In this document: one piece after another, positions 1-53,351 of the stretch
How the letters are laid out: the number at the start of each line of letters is the position of its first letter
How positions within the stretch are numbered: the first letter of the stretch is position 1
From: Minisyncoccota bacterium
GTDB lineage: Bacteria > Patescibacteriota > Minisyncoccia > Phycocordibacterales > UBA918
Length of the DNA: 64,000 nucleotides
Direction: 5' to 3'
Assembly (NCBI GenBank): GCA_018062385.1
Contig: JAGOSI010000001.1
Location: 5,904 to 69,903 of the forward strand
Notes under the pieces: model-generated
What the model was told of the DNA's origin: nothing
Databases searched by the model: none
What the model saw: only the letters and a program-made list of their open reading frames with translations
Translations under genes and position numbers: made by a program

Positions 1-504
1 TCTGAAACAGCTAAGCCAAAAGTTGGTAATCGTTTACCACTAAAAGCGATTCCAGTTGGTACTTTTGTATACAACGTGGAATTAAAACCAGGTGCTGGTG
101 CAAAAATTGCTCGCTCTGCTGGTAATCACATTGAAGTCGTTGCCCAAGACGTGAATTACACTCTACTAAAGATGCCTTCAACCGAAATTCGTAAAGTAAT
201 TTCAACTGCTTGGGCATCAATCGGTTCAGTATCAAACGAAGAACACCGCTTGGTGGATCTCGGTAAAGCTGGTCGCGCTCGTCATATGGGACTTCGTCCA
301 AAGACTCGTGGTTCAGCTAAAAACGCTGTGGATCACCCACATGGAGGAGGTGAAGGTCGCGCTCCAAGAGGACATCGCCGTGCTCGTACAAAGCAAGGTC
401 GTCCAACTGGAAAGGGACAAAAGACTCGTTCTCCAAAGAAGCATTCAAATGTATTTATTGTCGAACGTCGGAAGCCAGGTCGGCTGATGGGCGGGAAGAG
501 ATAA
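1..504 (+). CDS. rplB: 50S ribosomal protein L2, C-terminal part (5' end lies upstream of window)
   Basis: Frame 1 from position 1 reads ...IPVGTFVYNVELKPGAGAKIARSAG...HPHGGGEGRAP... to stop at 502-504; conserved L2 C-terminal motifs. Confidence 0.9.
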   Translation, partial: SETAKPKVGNRLPLKAIPVGTFVYNVELKPGAGAKIARSAGNHIEVVAQDVNYTLLKMPSTEIRKVISTAWASIGSVSNEEHRLVDLGKAGRARHMGLRPKTRGSAKNAVDHPHGGGEGRAPRGHRRARTKQGRPTGKGQKTRSPKKHSNVFIVERRKPGRLMGGKR

Positions 505-512
505 ACAAAAAA

Positions 513-541
513 GTCACTACGCAAGTAGTGACTTTTTTGTT
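513..541 (+). terminator. Rho-independent terminator after rplB (gtcactac-gcaa-gtagtgac + T-run)
   Basis: Perfect 8-bp stem, 4-nt loop, followed by TTTTTTGTTT; unexpectedly ends the operon before rpsS. Confidence 0.7.
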
Positions 542-703
542 TAGCAAGCAACTTGAGTTGCGTGCGTATCTCTTCCCGAGTCGCAGTGATATTTTTCTTT
601 CTCAAAAAGAAAAATCACGAGACGGGGTCGCGAACACTTAGTAGATTTGGAGTCAAAAACGAACAAATATACTTAGTGATTCGTGACGAAAGCGGTAAAA
701 CAA

Positions 704-734
704 CAAAAAACCCCTTACGCAGGGGTGTTTTTTG
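704..734. terminator. Bidirectional terminator (A-run, cccct-tacgc-agggg, T-run)
   Basis: Hairpin flanked by A7 and T7 runs immediately downstream of the minus-strand gene ending at 744. Confidence 0.6.
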
Positions 735-743
735 TGACTTTTG

Positions 744-1277
744 TTACACGGTTTTCTTAATGCTGCTGGCTAACATAAAGCTAATTACTATAGGCCATAT
801 AGTGTAAATCAAAACCATTGCATAGTAATCATTATTAAGTATAAGATTGTAGATTGCAGATGGTATAAGACCTCCAACTAATAATATAAGTATTATATTA
901 AATAAAGGAATGGTTTCATTGTTTTGTTTTATAACCATTTTAAAGCCTACGGTTAATATCAGAGCGCCAATTAGACCGCCAATAAACAGGCTATGATTTT
1001 CTAATTTGGAAAATTCTCCCGAGCTATCTTGCGCGGAAATAAAAAAAGCAATCAAATAACTGATTGTACAAAATTTTAACCAAATGTATTTTGTGTTTCT
1101 TTTTGGATATTTGGCCAATATTACTTTTAGGGTAATTAGTCCATAAATAAGACCAGCTCCTAAAATTATAAGTAACATAAAACCCCCTTCAAATTCAGTT
1201 ATTAGACTTAGAATACCTGACAAAAAAGCCAAGCTAGTAAATTGTTGTCTAAAACTTAGGCTATTAAAATAACTCAT
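744..1277 (-). CDS. hypothetical integral membrane protein (multiple predicted TM helices)
   Basis: 177-aa ORF, hydrophobic segments; no recognisable family. Confidence 0.5.
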   Translation of the reverse strand: MSYFNSLSFRQQFTSLAFLSGILSLITEFEGGFMLLIILGAGLIYGLITLKVILAKYPKRNTKYIWLKFCTISYLIAFFISAQDSSGEFSKLENHSLFIGGLIGALILTVGFKMVIKQNNETIPLFNIILILLVGGLIPSAIYNLILNNDYYAMVLIYTIWPIVISFMLASSIKKTV

Positions 1278-1367
1278 TGATATTTTTGTTTAGGTGATAA
1301 AATTTTTAATTTTAGTATTGTATCATTACATTTTTTTATTAAGTATATTTAAAACTGATTTTAAATA

Positions 1368-1688
1368 TTACACCCCTGGCTTTTTCTCCCTCGTCTTAAA
1401 TTCCGTGTTGGTAAATTTCTTGTGAGTAGATAAAGCGGAGAAAATGTGCGGAGCTAAATCGGAGTTGCAATGCACGGCTACCTTTTGGATACCTTGGCCA
1501 GAAATTATCAGCTCCATGCCGGCGTTGGTAAAGCAGGCAGTAATACGGCGTTTACCACTTTGGCTTTTTCCCTGAGTGATTATTCCTGGGGAAATCATTT
1601 CTACCCCCGGAATAGTTTCCAGTATGGTGACCACGGTTTCAGCTGTTTCGGTCAAGGTGGTGTGTGTTCCACCACGTAGGTTTTTCAT
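1368..1688 (-). CDS. hypothetical protein, possibly a fragment of a Rossmann-fold (LOG/DprA-like) protein
   Basis: 106-aa ORF; motif RGGTHTTLTE weakly resembles GGxGTxxE of LOG family, but the N-terminal half is absent; alternative plus-strand ORF 1470-1679 overlaps. Confidence 0.25.
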   Translation of the reverse strand: MKNLRGGTHTTLTETAETVVTILETIPGVEMISPGIITQGKSQSGKRRITACFTNAGMELIISGQGIQKVAVHCNSDLAPHIFSALSTHKKFTNTEFKTREKKPGV

Positions 1689-1778
1689 TACTTTCAGTAT
1701 AACATTATATATAAATAGACAAATTAATTATTTTTTTTACTAATTTCATATGTTATAGTAATAAATAAGCCATATATT

Positions 1779-2303
1779 ATGCCAAATAAAGAACTTGTCG
1801 ATTACATAAATAGCTCACTTTCCGCAGGCGAATCTCCCGAAAAGATTAGAGTAAATTTGATAACTTCAGGATGGAAGGAGGAGGAAATAGATGATGTTTT
1901 AAATAAATTAGTCTCTATTTTTGATGCTAATAATCCAATAGTTGATTTTGATTTTGAGATTAAGCATGAAGTTGGTCATGAAGTTAACTCACAAAATTAT
2001 CCTAATCAAAATCAAAAAAAAGATTTGAGCCCACTTTACTATTTACTAGGGGCTCTTATTTTAGATGTTGTAGGTTTTGGAGTGTGTGCGATGGGACCAT
2101 CTGCATATATTTCACTGTTCACAATCATTTATCTTTCAGCAGCCGTGCTTGCTTTTATTAGTATTATAAAAATTAACCAAGTCGACCAAATAACAGGATT
2201 AAAAAGAAATATCTTATTAAGAATTATTATAACTATCTTAGCTCTGGCTGTAGGTGGGTGGGGTCTTTTGTGGGGTGTCTGGGGTATTGGGGGAGCGTTA
2301 TAA
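1779..2303 (+). CDS. hypothetical membrane protein with N-terminal soluble domain
   Basis: 174-aa ORF; charged N-terminus, 3-4 hydrophobic helices, Gly/Trp-rich C-terminus. Confidence 0.5.
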   Translation: MPNKELVDYINSSLSAGESPEKIRVNLITSGWKEEEIDDVLNKLVSIFDANNPIVDFDFEIKHEVGHEVNSQNYPNQNQKKDLSPLYYLLGALILDVVGFGVCAMGPSAYISLFTIIYLSAAVLAFISIIKINQVDQITGLKRNILLRIIITILALAVGGWGLLWGVWGIGGAL

Positions 2304-2312
2304 ATAGAATTC

Positions 2313-3044
2313 ATGGAAGTTATATTTCATTACGCTACTGACTTGCTGGCCACTATCATTGGTGTTCATTTATATTTACGATCTAGAAATAAGGATTTAA
2401 TTCGTGAAGAATATCGTATATATATAATCATCGGAGCTTTAATCGGAGCTTTAATTTTTAGTCGTTTGATAGCGGCTTTTGAAAATCCTGAACTTTTTCT
2501 TAATCCTCCAAATTATTTTTATTATTTTTCTGGTAAGACAATCATTGGTGGAATTGTTGGTGGTATTTTGGGTATTGAAATAGCAAAAAAAGTACTTGGA
2601 ATAAAAGTCTGGACAGGTAATCGTGCTTTGGTGCCATTAATTGTAGCAATAATAATTGGTCGGATCGGATGTTTTGTGGCTGGAGTTCAAGATGGTACAG
2701 TCGGTGGAGTTTGTAATTATTTTTGGTGTTTGGAACAGGGAGATGGATTGCTAAGGCATCCAAACTCACTTTATGAAATAACTTTTCTTTTGCTATTTCT
2801 TGTCGGCTACTATTTTGCCAAAAAATCAACTTATCCCACTATAATCTTTTTAGTTGAGACACCGGGTATAGCTTTTAGAACTTTTATTATTTTGTATTTT
2901 TCTTTGCGTTTTGGAATAGAGTTTTTAAAAGATACCAATCCAATTATTCTTGGTTTAAATAGTATTCAATTAATTTGTCTACCTTTTATTGTGTGGTACA
3001 TAAATGATTTGAGGTATAAATATTTTTCTCGCCAAGGTGTTTAA
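2313..3044 (+). CDS. lgt: prolipoprotein diacylglyceryl transferase (Lgt) family protein
   Basis: IIGRIGCFVAG(V)QDG resembles the Lgt GR(L)GNF(I)NGE signature, and LRHPNSLYE matches the Lgt HPSQLYE motif; polytopic membrane protein; 243 aa is short for Lgt. Confidence 0.6.
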   Translation: MEVIFHYATDLLATIIGVHLYLRSRNKDLIREEYRIYIIIGALIGALIFSRLIAAFENPELFLNPPNYFYYFSGKTIIGGIVGGILGIEIAKKVLGIKVWTGNRALVPLIVAIIIGRIGCFVAGVQDGTVGGVCNYFWCLEQGDGLLRHPNSLYEITFLLLFLVGYYFAKKSTYPTIIFLVETPGIAFRTFIILYFSLRFGIEFLKDTNPIILGLNSIQLICLPFIVWYINDLRYKYFSRQGV

Positions 3045-3112
3045 GTTGTGTTAGATTACCCTCGTTGTTCTTTAGTAGTTCTTTTCATAAAACTCTTTGA
3101 TAGGGGAATATA

Positions 3113-4489
3113 ATGAGTCATAATCGAGAAGTTGTAACCTCAGGGGGTGAGTGTTGTGGTAACACTTTAACCCTAGACCATTTTTGTGGTAACGGGGCAC
3201 TTTTAGTAAAAAACAAGCGTTCCAGATGTAATGAATGTTTCAGTGATGTACCAGCCGAGGTCTGGCGATCAAATGATAGTCCACCGCGTATTTATATGCG
3301 TAAGTATTGTTCAGATCATGGTGTTACCAGCTCAAGACTGTCTAGTGACGCCCAGTTCTATTTTTTACCAAAAAATGGAGAAGTTAATTGTTGTGCACCT
3401 GGTAGTGATTGTTCAACCTCTCCGCTTGGTGAAAACGCAATAACTGCTAGTCAATTACATACCTGTACTTTGGTAATTGAGATTGTGTATGATTGTAATC
3501 TGTCTTGTGAGACTTGTTATGCAAATAGTCCAAAAGCTTCTGGTGGAATAAGTAGTAATTATCTATCTTTTGATGATTTTCAGTCACAAGTATTGAGTGT
3601 TCTTGATAAGCAGGGCAAGATTGATATCCTACAACTTTCTGGAGGTGAACCAACTCTTCATCCTGAGCTAATGCGTATTTTGTCTTGGCTTAAAAATGAA
3701 CCAAGAGTTACAGATGTACTTCTAAATACCAACGGTACTCGCCTTATCGATCCGTTGTTTGTAGGTGAGCTTGCTAAAAATATCCCTCAAGGTAAATTCG
3801 GAATCTACTTGCAGTATGATGGTGATCTTGAGGCTGGACAGAATGAGTTGAGGGGAGGTGATTTTCGTTACATTAGAAGTCGAGCGATAGATAGGTGTAA
3901 AGAGGTAAATATTCCAATTGCTTTAGTAATGACAGTATCACATGATAATAAATTTGATTGCCCATCTGCACTTAATCGTGCACTTCAAGATGATCATGTG
4001 CGTTGGGTAGTATATCAACCTGAATTTATTTCCGGCAGGAACGATAAAACTAAGAAATTGGAAATCCCAATTAATGTCGCTGATGTTATTCATAGCGTGG
4101 CAAAGGGAAGTGTTATGGATTTAGGTTCATGGATGCCCTTGCCGTGTAGTCATCCGAATTGTGGCACTATAGGATTTCTTGTTCGTAAAAATGGGCAGTG
4201 GTTTCCGGTATCTGACTTTGTCGAAATGAAGCAATTTACTCCACTAATAGTAAATCGTATGAATTTTGATGTGGATGATGCGCTGGATGCTTGTGGTTGT
4301 GATAACTATAGTCTATCTGAATATCTTGAAAGGTTAGGAATTTCTAAACAGGATATAAAGATGGTTTTTATTAAGCCATTCATGGATGCAAGAACTTGGG
4401 ATACGGATCGTATCGAAGCATGTTGTACTCATGTTCTAACTCCTGAAGGCAAGGTGGATAGTTTTTGCCGTTATTACGGTAGTAAGTAG
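3113..4489 (+). CDS. radical SAM enzyme with ~120-aa Cys-rich N-terminal extension and Cys-rich C-terminal (possible auxiliary Fe-S) region
   Basis: CNLSCETCY = CxxxCxxC radical SAM motif preceded by a conserved aromatic; N-terminal region has CC, CG, CxxC and CCxxxxxC clusters; C-terminus has CSHPNC, CGC and CC....C. Confidence 0.7.
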   Translation: MSHNREVVTSGGECCGNTLTLDHFCGNGALLVKNKRSRCNECFSDVPAEVWRSNDSPPRIYMRKYCSDHGVTSSRLSSDAQFYFLPKNGEVNCCAPGSDCSTSPLGENAITASQLHTCTLVIEIVYDCNLSCETCYANSPKASGGISSNYLSFDDFQSQVLSVLDKQGKIDILQLSGGEPTLHPELMRILSWLKNEPRVTDVLLNTNGTRLIDPLFVGELAKNIPQGKFGIYLQYDGDLEAGQNELRGGDFRYIRSRAIDRCKEVNIPIALVMTVSHDNKFDCPSALNRALQDDHVRWVVYQPEFISGRNDKTKKLEIPINVADVIHSVAKGSVMDLGSWMPLPCSHPNCGTIGFLVRKNGQWFPVSDFVEMKQFTPLIVNRMNFDVDDALDACGCDNYSLSEYLERLGISKQDIKMVFIKPFMDARTWDTDRIEACCTHVLTPEGKVDSFCRYYGSK

Positions 4490-4640
4490 CGTTATTTTTA
4501 GGAAACACCAAGCATTTTTTGCTTGGTGTTTTTTGTCTCTATAAACCGCTAATTCAAAGTCTCGTGTTGGTAATTGTTTGCTAATTACTTAAAGTGGAAA
4601 TGTTATACTGGAGCATTATCTAAATTTTAATTAATTCCTT

Positions 4641-5849
4641 ATGAATGTTTTTGCCGATAATCGCTTCAGTCTAATATTTATCGTTAGTCTTTTGTCAGCT
4701 TTGTTATTTTTAGTCACCCCATCATTTTCTCAAGCCCAAGTGCCAGGAGATTGTGGCTTCACTGCTACTTTGGAGCTGGGTTCCGACAGTGAGGAGGTGC
4801 GTTGTTTGCAAAAGTATCTCAATGCCAGCGGTTTTGTAATTGCTGAGAGTGGCCCAGGTTCGGTTGGAAAGGAGACTTCTATGTTTCGAGCTCTTACTAA
4901 AGAAGCATTGATTAAATGGCAACAATCGCACAATATTACCCCGGCCACTGGCGTGTTTGGTGAAAAATCAAAAGCTACTTACTTACTTGATTTGGTTAAA
5001 AAATTAAGTAATGAACAAGGAGGTCAAAATGTGGTAGTAACAGACCCCGTACCAGATACTGAAGACACCGTCAGTGCTGATATACCCGACACTGATTCTG
5101 AGGCTAAGAATGACGCTGAGCGACAGATCACTTCTGCAATGGTAATGATCCTAGATACTTATGACGAACTAGACAATGTTCGTGATGATGATCCAGATGA
5201 GGCTGTAAATATTGAAGAAGATACACGTGAATCATTAAAGGATCTGTTAGAATCAATAAAGACTTATTTTGACGGTGACTATGACGAAGCCGGAAGTTTG
5301 GCCGAGGATGTTTTAAATGACGCTACCGATTCCTTTGAAGACGCTGGTGGAGAATCAGCTAAAAGCAAAGCTGAGGATATACTTGATGATGTTGAGGATT
5401 TCTATGATGATCTAGAAGAACTTATAGCTGATGCAGAGGATCAAAATGAAGATGTGGGCGACGCCCCAGATCTTTTAGAAGAAGCTCGAGATTTATTAGA
5501 TGAAGCTGAGGAAGCCTTTGCTGATGGTGTCTATAAGCAAGCCATCAGCGATGCTAATGACGCTGAAGATTTACTAAATGAGGCCGAAGATGAGATTGAT
5601 TTAGTGTCTGATCGTGACGCGGAGAAGTTGGTGAAGGAAGTTTGGGATCAATTTGACGAAGCGGAAGATGAATTATCTGAAGCTGAGACCAATGGTGAAG
5701 ATATTGACGAAGCGGAAGAATTACTTGATGATGCCAAGCGCAATCTAAAGAAGGCTGATATGGCGCTTGATGAAGAGGATTACTCCGAAGCCGTTGATTT
5801 GGCAGAAGAAGCCGAAGAATTGATTGAAGAAGCTTTGGATGAGCTGTAA
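4641..5849 (+). CDS. secreted protein with peptidoglycan-binding-like domain and long acidic (D/E-rich) repetitive C-terminal region
   Basis: Signal peptide ...PSFSQAQ; segment CLQKYLNASGF...GVFGEKSKATY resembles a PG_binding_1 domain; ~250 aa tail dominated by D/E with repeated EAEE/DEAE motifs. Confidence 0.6.
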   Translation: MNVFADNRFSLIFIVSLLSALLFLVTPSFSQAQVPGDCGFTATLELGSDSEEVRCLQKYLNASGFVIAESGPGSVGKETSMFRALTKEALIKWQQSHNITPATGVFGEKSKATYLLDLVKKLSNEQGGQNVVVTDPVPDTEDTVSADIPDTDSEAKNDAERQITSAMVMILDTYDELDNVRDDDPDEAVNIEEDTRESLKDLLESIKTYFDGDYDEAGSLAEDVLNDATDSFEDAGGESAKSKAEDILDDVEDFYDDLEELIADAEDQNEDVGDAPDLLEEARDLLDEAEEAFADGVYKQAISDANDAEDLLNEAEDEIDLVSDRDAEKLVKEVWDQFDEAEDELSEAETNGEDIDEAEELLDDAKRNLKKADMALDEEDYSEAVDLAEEAEELIEEALDEL

Positions 5850-5879
5850 AAAACTGAATTTAACCAAAAAATATCAGAA

Positions 5880-5916
5880 AACTGAGTTTTCCAGAGGGTA
5901 AACTCGGTTTTTTTCA
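5880..5916 (+). terminator. Rho-independent terminator after acidic-protein gene
   Basis: aactgagttt...aaactcggtt 10-bp stem (one G-U), followed by T7. Confidence 0.65.
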
Positions 5917-5937
5917 TCGGCAATATGTACGTTTTCA

Positions 5938-5966
5938 TTGACTTTTCCGTCTTTTTTCGGTACTCT
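5938..5966 (+). promoter_or_regulatory. sigma70-like promoter of rpsS sub-operon: TTGACT-N17-TACTCT
   Basis: -35 TTGACT at 5938-5943, 17-nt spacer, -10 TACTCT at 5961-5966; the module TTTTTCGGTACT(C/G)TAGC recurs upstream of rpsN at 10011-10031. Confidence 0.6.
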
Positions 5967-6154
5967 AGCCAAGTTCCAACCTCAGTGAGGAGTTAAGAAT
6001 CTATCTAAATTCTTAGTGTCACCTCACAAAAAGTTAAGAAGAAGTTGATTTATAAAGCTTTGAGAACCTCTGTTAAGGACGGCCGTTACCTTTCTTTACA
6101 AGAGGTTCTCAAAAAACGCATTATCAATGCGTTATTATTCGTATAGTTAAATGT

Positions 6155-6496
6155 ATGTCACGATCACTCTATAAAGGACCATACGTAGATGAGAAGTTGC
6201 TGAAGAAGATCGCCGGTAAAAAACCCGGAGAGAGTGTTGTCATCAAGACTTGGGCGCGCGATAGCGTAATTGCTCCGGAAATGGTTGGCTTCACGTTTGG
6301 TGTCCATAACGGTAAAGAACATATTCCAGTTTCTGTTTCTGAAGAAATGGTAGGTCACCGTTTAGGAGAATTTTCACCAACTAAGAAATTCCATCGTCAC
6401 GGAGGTAAGATGCAAAAAGAACTTGAGCAGAAGAAGAAGCAAGCTGAAATTGATGCTGCAAAAGCCGCTAAATCAGCTTCCTCTAGTAAAAAGTAG
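6155..6496 (+). CDS. rpsS: 30S ribosomal protein S19 with Lys/Ala-rich C-terminal extension
   Basis: [18 protein letters not shown]...[19 protein letters not shown] matches S19; extra C-terminal [20 protein letters not shown]. Confidence 0.95.
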
Positions 6497-9719: not shown

Positions 9720-9743
9720 TTGATTGTAAGAGAAATAATAAAA

Positions 9744-9775
9744 CCCCCGAAAAACTTCGTTTTTCGGGGGTTTTT
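9744..9775 (+). terminator. Rho-independent terminator after rplE (cccccgaaaaac-ttc-gtttttcggggg + T5)
   Basis: 12-bp perfect stem and T-run; separates rplE from rpsN, which are normally co-transcribed. Confidence 0.75.
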
Positions 9776-9998
9776 GAAGTGTGATTAAATTTAATATTTT
9801 CTGTCAGTTTTATAAAATTTTCCGATTAATCCCATTACAAAAAATAAAAGTACTAACAGAAGTAACCAAAATGGAGCCAAAATCATATCTTTCACTATAA
9901 ATTCCTCCTAATTTAAAAATAAATCATAATCTCTACTTGTGTATCTATAATTATAATGACATTTTTTAAAGTTTTGTCCACAGACACCTATTAGTAGG

Positions 9999-10027
9999 TT
10001 GACTTTATCCTTATTTTTCGGTACTGT
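9999..10027 (+). promoter_or_regulatory. sigma70-like promoter of rpsN-secY sub-operon: TTGACT-N17-TACTGT
   Basis: -35 TTGACT 9999-10004, 17-nt spacer, -10 TACTGT 10022-10027; near-identical to the promoter at 5938-5966. Confidence 0.6.
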
Positions 10028-10156
10028 AGCGGGCAAGGCGACATTATAGGTCACCAACAAAAAACCTATAGTTCGCTGCCCAGTCTTTGACTCGGCGATT
10101 ATCAGGGGGTAAGTCACGACAAACTACGTGATACTATCCCATAAACAAACACAAAA

Positions 10157-10342
10157 GTGGCACGAAAATCAGTAAAGCTTCGCGCGATGCGCGAACCAAA
10201 GTTTGCTTGCCAAGTCGTAAGACGATGTAAGCTGTGTGGCCGAAAGCGAGGATATATGCGAGATTTTGATACTTGCCGTATCTGTTTCCGCGAGTTGGCC
10301 CACGAAGGACATATACCAGGAGTTAAGAAATCATCATGGTAG
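10157..10342 (+). CDS. rpsN: 30S ribosomal protein S14 type Z (zinc-binding, 61 aa), GTG start
   Basis: [16 protein letters not shown]...[38 protein letters not shown] with CxxC...CxxC. Confidence 0.95.
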
Positions 10343-33056: not shown

Positions 33057-33453
33057 CGGTGGAGATGGCGAGAATTGAACCCGCGTCCGAATGAGGGTGT
33101 CTTTATGAGTCTACAGTGTGTAGTTTCACTTTAGGTTTAAACTATTTAGCTATAAGAGAAACCAAACACTAAATAATCGAGTTTCAAGAATTTGAGTTTA
33201 CTACTGAAACGACATAGCAAACCGTAATCTCATGGCTATTTTACCCACACTCCTTTATGAGATATAGAGGAGGTGAGCATCGCTACGGCCTGCGTAAATT
33301 TACGCTAGAGCGGGAGCGAATCCAAACGCGTTAGCGTAAGGACTTGGTATGCTTTTCTTTGCACATACAAATTGCTCGAGTTTTGAGAGAGTCTCGAGCA
33401 GCTCTCACACTGCACACAAAGAGCACGACTCACCGTCGATGCCTAGCATCCCC
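33057..33453 (-). ncRNA. ssrA: tmRNA (transfer-messenger RNA, one-piece)
   Basis: Minus strand: 5' GGGGATGCTAGGCATCGACGG... and 3' ...GGACGCGGGTTCAATTCTCGCCATCTCCACC (T-arm plus acceptor; CCA not fully encoded); candidate tag frame ...GCT AAC GCG TTT GGA TTC GCT CCC GCT CTA GCG TAA (ANAFGFAPALA*). Confidence 0.9.
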
Positions 33454-44947: not shown

Positions 44948-44968
44948 TGCTCACATTGTAGCATTTTG

Positions 44969-45041
44969 TCCGCCAACTTGGACTCGAACCAAGGACCACA
45001 GAGGTATAAGCTCTGCGCTCTACCAACTGAGCTATTGGCGG
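44969..45041 (-). tRNA. tRNA with anticodon UAU (Ile-type, AUA-reading), C1-G72, A73, no encoded CCA
   Basis: Minus strand CCGCCAA-TA-GCTCAGTTGGTAGAGC-G-CAGAG-CTTATAC-CTCTG-TGGTC-CTTGG-TTCGAGT-CCAAG-TTGGCGG-A; cloverleaf parsed by eye. Confidence 0.65.
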
Positions 45042-53257: not shown

Positions 53258-53263
53258 GGGGTG

Positions 53264-53351
53264 CGGAGGATGTGAGATTCGAACTCACGGACCCGTTTAA
53301 AGGTCGACAGTTTAGTAAACTGTTGGTTTAAACCACTCACCCAATCCTCCT
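53264..53351 (-). tRNA. type II (long variable arm) tRNA, Ser-like (G73), apparent anticodon ACU in loop UUACUAA, non-canonical
   Basis: Minus strand GGAGGAT-TG-GGT-GAGTGGTTTAA-ACC-A-ACAGT-TTACTAA-ACTGT-CGACCTTTAAACGGGTC-CGTGAG/GTGAG-TTCGAAT-CTCAC-ATCCTCC-G. Confidence 0.5.

Follow-up and report, generated by a model that had tools for sequence, protein, structure and literature searches.

The Escherichia coli-type S10 operon is a single unit with one promoter, a gene series running from rpsJ to rpsQ and an L4-responsive leader that includes an attenuator. To our knowledge, the adjacency of rplB and rpsS within this series is treated as near-universal, and we know of almost no RNA regulators in the lineage considered here, the Paceibacteria. 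Sixteen syntenic ribosomal proteins are standard markers in the phylogeny and binning of the Candidate Phyla Radiation (CPR). A second described system is the candidate L2 ribosomal-protein leader of Alphaproteobacteria, located 5′ of rplB-rpsS-rplV-rpsC (PMC7247131); the leader survey that reported it presented no rpsS-proximal leader and no CPR leader. Here we analyzed a 64-kb stretch of DNA (the window; contig JAGOSI010000001.1 of a Minisyncoccota bacterium), in which the S10-type gene series is interrupted between rplB and rpsS; protein homologues assign the organism to the Paceibacteria (Parcubacteria, CPR). Protein families were judged by Pfam, NCBIfam and PHROG searches and RNA by Rfam 15; the split was found by sequence analysis, and the case for it consists of anatomy, conservation, covariation and co-occurrence.

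Taken as a whole, the evidence makes it likely that the S10–spc cluster is split into separate units, with a promoter and leader in front of rpsS and a spacer whose cargo turns over. The junction in the window is defined by the following features.

1–504, plus strand: 3′ portion of rplB, which encodes ribosomal protein L2 and closes the upstream unit (Pfam Ribosomal_L2_C, E = 1.9e-45)
502–543, plus strand: predicted intrinsic terminator after rplB, a perfect 19-bp hairpin with A6 before it and T6 after it
5938–5966, plus strand: putative rpsS promoter, TTGACT-17-TACTCT
5973–6154, plus strand: rpsS leader of ~180 nt, with a variable P1, conserved P2 and P3, and a UUAUUCGUA tract
5985–6027, plus strand: P1, a variable hairpin seen in the leader alignments
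6061–6111, plus strand: P2, a bipartite hairpin with an 11-bp outer stem, an internal loop, a 7-bp inner stem and an apical GG-CCGUUA-CC
6115–6133, plus strand: P3, a short hairpin rich in GC with a U-rich tract 3′ of it, listed as terminator-like by the scan
6155–6496, plus strand: rpsS (ribosomal protein S19), which opens the downstream unit (Pfam, E = 8e-34)

The window opens within rplB, which ends with a TAA stop codon at 502–504; L3, L4, L23 and L2 lie upstream in L001 (a locus from the same species as the window), in L004 and in L087 (from the sister species JAWKSP01). The downstream unit presented the order rpsS-rplV-rpsC-rplP-rpmC-rpsQ-rplN-rplX-rplE in the open reading frames (ORFs) of the window and the gene calls of L001, and the ribosomal gene order is otherwise canonical (Pfam gene calls in L001 and L087; window ORFs). 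Between the two runs lies a gap of 5650 bp with six ORFs, a terminator and a promoter, which is not the adjacency of a single S10 operon. A preliminary description of this DNA had placed the end of rplB at 504 with its own terminator at 513–541 and the start of rpsS at 6155 with six non-ribosomal genes between them, and had concluded that the operon is physically split by this terminator and, ahead of rpsS, by a promoter of its own with a structured leader; our analysis agrees on all of these points, with the 19-bp hairpin spanning the proposed terminator site and Pfam and the ORFs confirming the genes. Through its flanking A-run and T-run, this terminator is potentially bidirectional.

For comparison with relatives, we took the S19 loci from 80 GTDB species of Paceibacteria type and located L2 and S19 in each of them; the gap statistics rest on the 64 loci (species) holding both. 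The rplB-rpsS gap measures at least 50 bp in 59 of these 64 species and at least 1 kb in 25 (median 755 bp, largest 9.2 kb); gaps below 50 bp were found in five species and below 150 bp in 14. In three further loci, the 10 kb 5′ of rpsS contained no rplB. Every locus of the window's own clade has the gap (924–6886 bp), and the sister species presented the same architecture on a 623-kb contig, with a gap of 10.7 kb that includes a GNAT gene and several orphans. Terminator and promoter counts were made on distinct loci only. A terminator-like hairpin within 90 nt past the rplB stop was found in 65 of 94 loci, as compared to 31 of 501 windows placed at random in the same DNA (6%); the loci without it are mainly those with tight junctions. 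The promoter at 5938–5966 was not listed by a generic consensus scan and has a poor −10 element; the motif TTGAC(T/A)-16/17-(G)TAYTNT followed by GTTCCA was, nevertheless, found ~90–125 nt 5′ of P2 in ~78 of 92 relatives, so that both the position and the sequence of the dedicated promoter first proposed are kept. A form of this motif, TTGACT-N14-15-GGTAYTNT, has exactly two matches in the window (before rpsS and before rpsN), as compared to 0.02 expected.

These comparisons point to an ancestral, lineage-wide fission of the S10 cluster in Paceibacteria. As far as we found, this class-wide break is undescribed; our literature search, of incomplete coverage, returned nothing on a Paceibacteria rplB/rpsS split or rpsS leader. 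The block had initially been taken for an unusual insertion in this one genome, a view that does not survive the distribution of gaps among relatives; the alternative named at the time, an ancestral arrangement of the whole lineage with conserved gene content, is largely borne out by the spacing in relatives, although DUF2103 is the only part of the content that was kept.

The leader (5973–6160) folds at z = −5.0 and shows covariation in relatives, in line with the hairpin-rich leader of ~180 nt originally described. P2 is common to nine genome loci, with compensatory changes in 7 of its 18 pairs, and a covariance model (R1) was built from these nine seeds. A metagenome collection was scanned once for P2 with a loop-only pattern that left the stems unconstrained, yielding 118 metagenomic loci; S19 is encoded 53–294 nt downstream of P2 in 96 of the 98 loci with at least 400 nt of downstream room. 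R1 matched 98 of the 100 sources in which it was searched, at 61–81 bits, and the two sources that it did not match (L099 and L151) are also without S19 and look like chance pattern matches. Among 62 distinct sequences, 99.0% of P2 cells are paired, as compared to 91.3% in shuffled controls and 44–71% when the pairing was slid; compensatory cells number 100, as compared to 25.8 ± 7.4 shuffled and at most 21 slid, and 9 of the 18 pairs presented changes on both sides. The P3 hairpin is present in 90 of 90 sequences with compensatory changes in 6 of 6 pairs, and an independent analysis with MAFFT and RNAalifold, extended to P3, found covariation in 15 of 24 pairs. Most relatives also carry a conserved UUUAUUCGUA-like tract 3′ of P3. 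No Rfam family reached its gathering score for the leader, the best sub-threshold match being a plastid 3′ untranslated region (UTR) hairpin (29 bits vs. 48.5). On the 80 genome loci, R1 matched only its nine seeds, and it matched nowhere else in the 64 kb; more distant relatives have further CCGUUA-loop hairpins 5′ of rpsS (observed 16 times, 2.3 expected), which R1 missed. Ribosomal-protein leaders are recognized by a conserved, covarying structure in the 5′ UTR, which P2/P3 presents, and by mimicry of the rRNA site of a ribosomal protein of the operon that binds them, for which E. coli rRNA offered 8-mer likenesses only; we regard P2/P3 as a well-supported candidate for such a leader, not previously described.

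We propose that the S10–spc cluster in Paceibacteria (CPR/Patescibacteria) forms several transcription units rather than one operon. Unit 1 would stop past rplB at the intrinsic terminator and unit 2 would begin at rpsS from a conserved σ70-type promoter, with the structured leader giving the downstream unit its own autogenous control. A ribosomal protein encoded by the unit may bind P2 and modulate either termination at P3, a possible attenuator, or initiation at a start without a Shine-Dalgarno sequence; none is evident before the rpsS ATG (6134–6157). The spacer may act as a recombination and integration hot spot (a “cargo bay”) with contents that change on every time scale, and would tolerate foreign DNA because transcription is already interrupted there.

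Several points weigh against this reading. Termination after rplB, activity of the rpsS promoter and the transcript ends are predictions, and the −10 element of the promoter is weak by E. coli rules. The U-tract of P3 is interrupted in the window (AUUAUU), and attenuation may therefore not operate there. The loop of P2 was set by the search pattern, with the stems free, which accounts in part for its invariance among the metagenomic loci. An 8-mer likeness, CGGCCGU[AU], was found in E. coli 23S H69 and 5S only and is interpretable only against Paceibacteria rRNA. The 80 related loci were taken as the best matches to S19 and do not sample the class at random. Finally, we infer the hot spot from the diversity of contents rather than from observed integration, and no integrase or att site was found at the gap.

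Among the alternatives, the one that survives best holds that P2/P3 is no ribosomal-protein leader but a small RNA, a metabolite-sensing riboswitch, or an element for RNA processing or stability. We consider this unlikely: P2/P3 always lies on the sense strand at the distance from rpsS given above, once per locus, and two simple hairpins with a sequence-invariant loop suit a protein-binding leader better than a riboswitch aptamer, even though the stretch from the promoter to P3, with its U-tract, could give a terminated transcript of ~160 nt and rRNA mimicry by P2/P3 was not demonstrated with E. coli rRNA. In the latter comparison, which concerns E. coli rather than Paceibacteria rRNA, CCGUUA occurs once, as by chance.

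A candidate ribosomal-protein leader remains our preferred reading of P2/P3, and the gap upstream of it contains, besides a three-gene module considered below, the following features.

544–703, plus strand: structured spacer, in which 567–578 pairs with the last rplB codons (492–503), enclosing the terminator in an inverted repeat
704–735, both strands: second terminator-like hairpin (terminator scan), which ends the gene at 744–1277
744–1277, minus strand: multi-transmembrane protein of 177 aa with four hydrophobic segments
1368–1688, minus strand: DUF2103-family protein of 106 aa (Pfam PF09876, a marginal match at 22.5 bits vs. a gathering score of 22.4)
4641–5849, plus strand: PG_binding_1 protein, secreted or anchored (Pfam PG_binding_1 and DUF4398; signal-like N-terminus)
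5882–5914, plus strand: terminator-like hairpin past the PG-binding gene, 8 bp with a 10-nt loop and then U7, read from the sequence

The last of these hairpins is not listed by the terminator scan because its loop exceeds the limit of the scan. The region past rplB (486–742) is very strongly structured (fold z = −9.5), is kept at 97.6% in L001, where it is partly duplicated, and could be a 3′-UTR element or a small RNA. A known RNA family was sought for the post-rplB spacer and rejected, as Rfam gave sub-threshold chance matches only.

Across species, gap contents are heterogeneous, with a DAGK_prokar (dgkA-like) gene in 13 species, DUF3298 in four, PKD and NYN proteins, and many orphans. The DAGK_prokar proteins (diacylglycerol or undecaprenol kinase-like, ~130 aa) are encoded in the gaps of L009, L011, L017, L024, L032, L034, L035, L037, L041, L053, L062, L072 and L077; four species, all among these 13, also have pyrF and a phosphoribosyltransferase gene in the gap. 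Within the window's clade, a DUF2103 gene is present in 30 of 31 loci. The protein encoded at 1368–1688 has 155 homologues of ~106 aa, many with a precomputed PF09876 assignment, and its gene is the ancestral gap occupant of the clade; the LOG-like fragment suggested for this position was not supported, as there was no LOG match and the DUF2103 match was found instead. One could suppose that the gap genes, above all DUF2103, are tied to the ribosome, for example as an assembly or silencing factor, and were placed here for co-regulation; we think this somewhat less probable than the alternatives for the leader just discussed, and doubtful overall. The protein at 4641–5849 has a tail of 263 aa that is acidic (39% Asp+Glu) and helical with internal repeats, in agreement with the secreted PG-binding protein with a polyacidic tail of ~250 aa described previously; 10 of the 31 clade loci have homologues of it in this gap. 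Two hypothetical membrane proteins had also been reported: the products of 744–1277 and 1779–2303 are indeed multi-transmembrane proteins without a family (for 744–1277, no Pfam, NCBIfam or PHROG match), but the latter is now assigned to the module.

The leftmost cassette (744–1277) is strain-variable. L001 and the window are 97–99% identical in the flanks, and their difference is confined to 741–1367; the L001 counterpart of the 744–1277 protein is only 49% identical, and L001 (2157–8254) has four extra gap genes encoding proteins of 549, 446, 390 and 356 aa, of which the 390-aa protein presents Mur ligase M and C domains and the other three belong to no family. This extra block of 5.3 kb is bracketed by duplicated pieces of the junction (56 nt from the 3′ end of the DUF2103 gene and 33 nt from the sequence past rplB). 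Since contents differ among species, among sister lineages and among strains, the spacer seems to be undergoing remodelling at the class, genus and strain level.

Such variation, together with the L001 junction duplications and a GC content of 0.30–0.36 over 750–3250 (as compared to ~0.39 for the whole window and 0.42–0.45 for the ribosomal genes), could suggest that the 5.6-kb block is a recently acquired island or mobile element in an otherwise intact S10 operon. We judge this improbable. The gap, terminator, promoter and leader are older than this genome and present across the clade; the six gap proteins include no integrase, transposase or phage family (Pfam, NCBIfam, PHROG), and the borders have neither a tRNA nor flanking repeats. 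A mobile element was, therefore, rejected as a candidate on the absence of mobile-element families, border repeats and a nearby tRNA. For the Lgt-like and radical S-adenosylmethionine (SAM) genes of the block, the nearest homologues are those of other Paceibacteria, and the low GC content coincides with the membrane-protein genes, while the right half of the block has average GC content; the comparison of base composition that had been recommended thus revealed a modest dip but gives no verdict on foreign origin. In our view, only the module and the leftmost cassette appear to be recent arrivals, the module having come from another locus of the same class rather than from a foreign source. Mis-assembly or a chimera of the kind typical of metagenome bins can practically be dismissed, even though the source is a metagenome-assembled genome, because the same gene order recurs in at least six independent assemblies from three pipelines at 96–100% DNA identity to the window, the sister species has the same architecture on its long contig, and a radical SAM protein identical to that of the window lies between rplB and rpsS in ENA, Logan and NCBI assemblies from different samples; the arrangement is real.

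The split cluster also carries, within the gap of the window, a module of three genes.

1779–2303, plus strand: 174-aa small membrane protein, no family, with three hydrophobic segments and the motif LDVVGFGVC
2313–3044, plus strand: Lgt-family membrane protein of 243 aa (Pfam LGT, 70.6 bits vs. a cut-off of 24.9)
3113–4489, plus strand: Tes/GDGT-MAS-like radical SAM enzyme of 458 aa with 22 Cys (Pfam Radical_SAM and Zn_ribbon_HMPTM)

The Lgt-family transferase and Cys-rich radical SAM enzyme of the preliminary description were recovered by Pfam, and the suggestion that they form a cell-envelope module gains support from their recurrence as a conserved envelope- or lipid-related pair. In 13 of 13 contexts across phyla, one of which (P0060) is known from gene calls, an LGT-family gene encoding ~235–260 aa is adjacent to, or within two genes of, the radical SAM gene. 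These contexts include the following.

Window species and sister species: pair in the gap between rplB and rpsS
Four other Paceibacteria loci: pair outside the ribosomal cluster
Locus of a 48%-identical homologue
Oligoflexia
Three further metagenomic lineages
Maribacter dokdonensis, a cultured species: found by way of the Lgt-like protein, with a radical SAM protein only 26% identical

Only the window species and L016/L087 presented the pair within the rplB-rpsS gap. Three of the four non-ribosomal Paceibacteria loci share a Peptidase_M3 ... FA_hydroxylase ... BipA neighbourhood, which is probably the ancestral site of the module; it may be from there that the module moved into the gap, and only in the window's genus-level lineage. 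The order shared by L088, L211 and L214 is SpoU methylase, Peptidase_M3, GFGxC protein(s), Lgt-like, radical SAM, (DUF2238), FA_hydroxylase and BipA, and the module may share a pathway with the DUF2238 gene and the gene of the fatty-acid-hydroxylase family. Between one and three small membrane proteins with a [VIL][VIL]GFGxC motif are encoded near the pair in 7 of 7 Patescibacteria loci; the motif had no match in ~1.95 Mb of other Paceibacteria loci nor in the rest of the window. Outside CPR, the adjacent small transmembrane proteins carry a Cys close to the C-terminus, in a G-x-x-C setting that is less strict.

The radical SAM enzyme is homologous over its full length to GDGT-MAS (PDB 7TOL; E = 1e-27, from the N-terminal ribbon through the C-terminal Cys motif) and keeps the CxxC...C..H ribbon, the CxxxCxxC site and the CC...FC motif. 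It differs from Tes/GDGT-MAS in being far below the curated cut-offs (160.7 vs. 490 for TrsS, NCBIfam NF045646; 137.1 vs. 450 for Tes, NF045702) and in its constant pairing with an Lgt-like protein, to which GFGxC proteins are added in Patescibacteria. Tes/GDGT-MAS is further characterized by tail-to-tail C-C coupling of lipid chains. The Lgt-like protein had no match in a single-sequence PDB search, while a profile of the Lgt-like partners matched E. coli Lgt (5AZB) at E = 8e-14. Compared with the E. coli enzyme, it shares the Pfam family and the transmembrane core; of H103, R143, N146, G154, Y235, R239 and E243, which we take to be the important residues of E. coli Lgt, R143, G154, Y235, R239 and E243 are kept, as is RHP..YE, whereas H103 is replaced by Ile and N146 by the Cys of a GRIGC motif, a Cys that is invariant in 8 of 8 partners. 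In addition, ~35 residues (between 158 and 193) are replaced by a short Cys-rich loop, the window protein being ~50 residues shorter. It reaches only 28.8 bits in the Lgt equivalog model (NCBIfam NF000778 / TIGR00544; cut-off 334), and Lgt-like partners elsewhere reach 25–70 bits, against cut-offs of 118.9 and 334. With the catalytic Asn replaced and the head domain missing, the protein is, judged by its sequence, no Lgt orthologue. The Cys-rich loop after GRIGC (window 2660–2740, residues ~116–140) reads C120...C134...C139 in CPR and GC..GCC.G..C outside CPR, and may form a disulfide cluster or bind a metal or an Fe-S centre.

The host class is reported to lack most lipid synthesis. In the proposed scheme, the module may modify either the membrane lipid itself or a Cys of the GFGxC proteins to which a lipid is linked: a diacylglyceryl lipid would be held or passed on by the Lgt-like protein, radical C-C (or C-S) bonds would be formed by the Tes-like enzyme, and the small membrane proteins with their Cys would serve as substrates or carriers. 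More tentatively, and as speculation that we would not rate highly, the three-part system may covalently join lipid chains into macrocyclic or membrane-spanning forms, or link a lipid to an intramembrane Cys, and so remodel scavenged host lipids in lipid-auxotrophic CPR; in other phyla it might also be the missing context for those bacterial Tes homologues whose chemistry is suspected to be of the branched glycerol dialkyl glycerol tetraether (brGDGT) type. Bacterial Tes homologues have been proposed to make brGDGTs or membrane-spanning lipids, without functional proof (PMC8941075, PMC13159169). The literature that we searched, again incompletely covered, contained no mention of an Lgt-like partner for Tes homologues, and the three-gene module, which is widespread, is undescribed as far as we found.

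A second fission of the same kind was found in the window between rplE and rpsN (9720–10156), with a structured leader of ~125 nt (z = −5.1) between a near-copy of the rpsS promoter and rpsN.

9741–9776: strong terminator in the rplE-rpsN gap
9791–9895, minus strand: hydrophobic 34-aa ORF with AGGAGG upstream
9999–10027: near-copy of the rpsS promoter
10157–10342: Zn-type S14 gene (rpsN)

At the rplE-rpsN junction of the sister species, a ROK-family gene was identified (L087 20146–20991). The S19 protein of the window has a C-terminal Lys/Ala/Glu-rich extension (residues 93–113; 6431–6496), which is probably lineage-specific, as many relatives align only to residues 1–92 or 1–99. Elsewhere in the window, ARAGORN identified a tRNA-Ser with anticodon ACU adjoining a tRNA-Ser(GCU) (53263–53350) and a tRNA-Ile with anticodon UAU (44968–45041), both anticodons being uncommon in bacteria; a tmRNA gene (33057–33453, minus strand) encodes the tag peptide AKKSIPSPYANAFGFAPALA.

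Contigs that carry ribosomal markers need to be interpreted with this class-wide break in mind, which measures up to 11 kb and holds variable cargo; the break also suggests that even the S10 cluster can be split once each piece owns a promoter and its control. P2/P3 may provide a handle on ribosomal-protein balance in reduced-genome symbionts, and the pairing of a Tes-like with an altered Lgt-like protein in the culturable Maribacter offers a testable route to the role of bacterial Tes homologues.

Operon fission, ribosomal-protein leaders, and the Lgt and Tes families are already known kinds, and the locus is best placed by comparison with the two S10 systems introduced above. With the E. coli-type operon it shares the canonical gene order on both sides of the break (L3-L4-L23-L2 and S19-L22-S3-L16-L29-S17-L14-L24-L5), as well as a hairpin of protein-binding type combined with a possible hairpin/U-tract attenuator; it differs in being cut at rplB/rpsS by a terminator and a second promoter, with 0.9–11 kb of unrelated genes between them. 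While the E. coli leader precedes rpsJ, the Paceibacteria RNA precedes rpsS and is without sequence or Rfam relation to it. The candidate L2 leader of Alphaproteobacteria is likewise a structured 5′ UTR within the S10 gene series, found in one lineage and showing covariation; the Paceibacteria element, however, lies directly before rpsS, in another lineage and with another structure.

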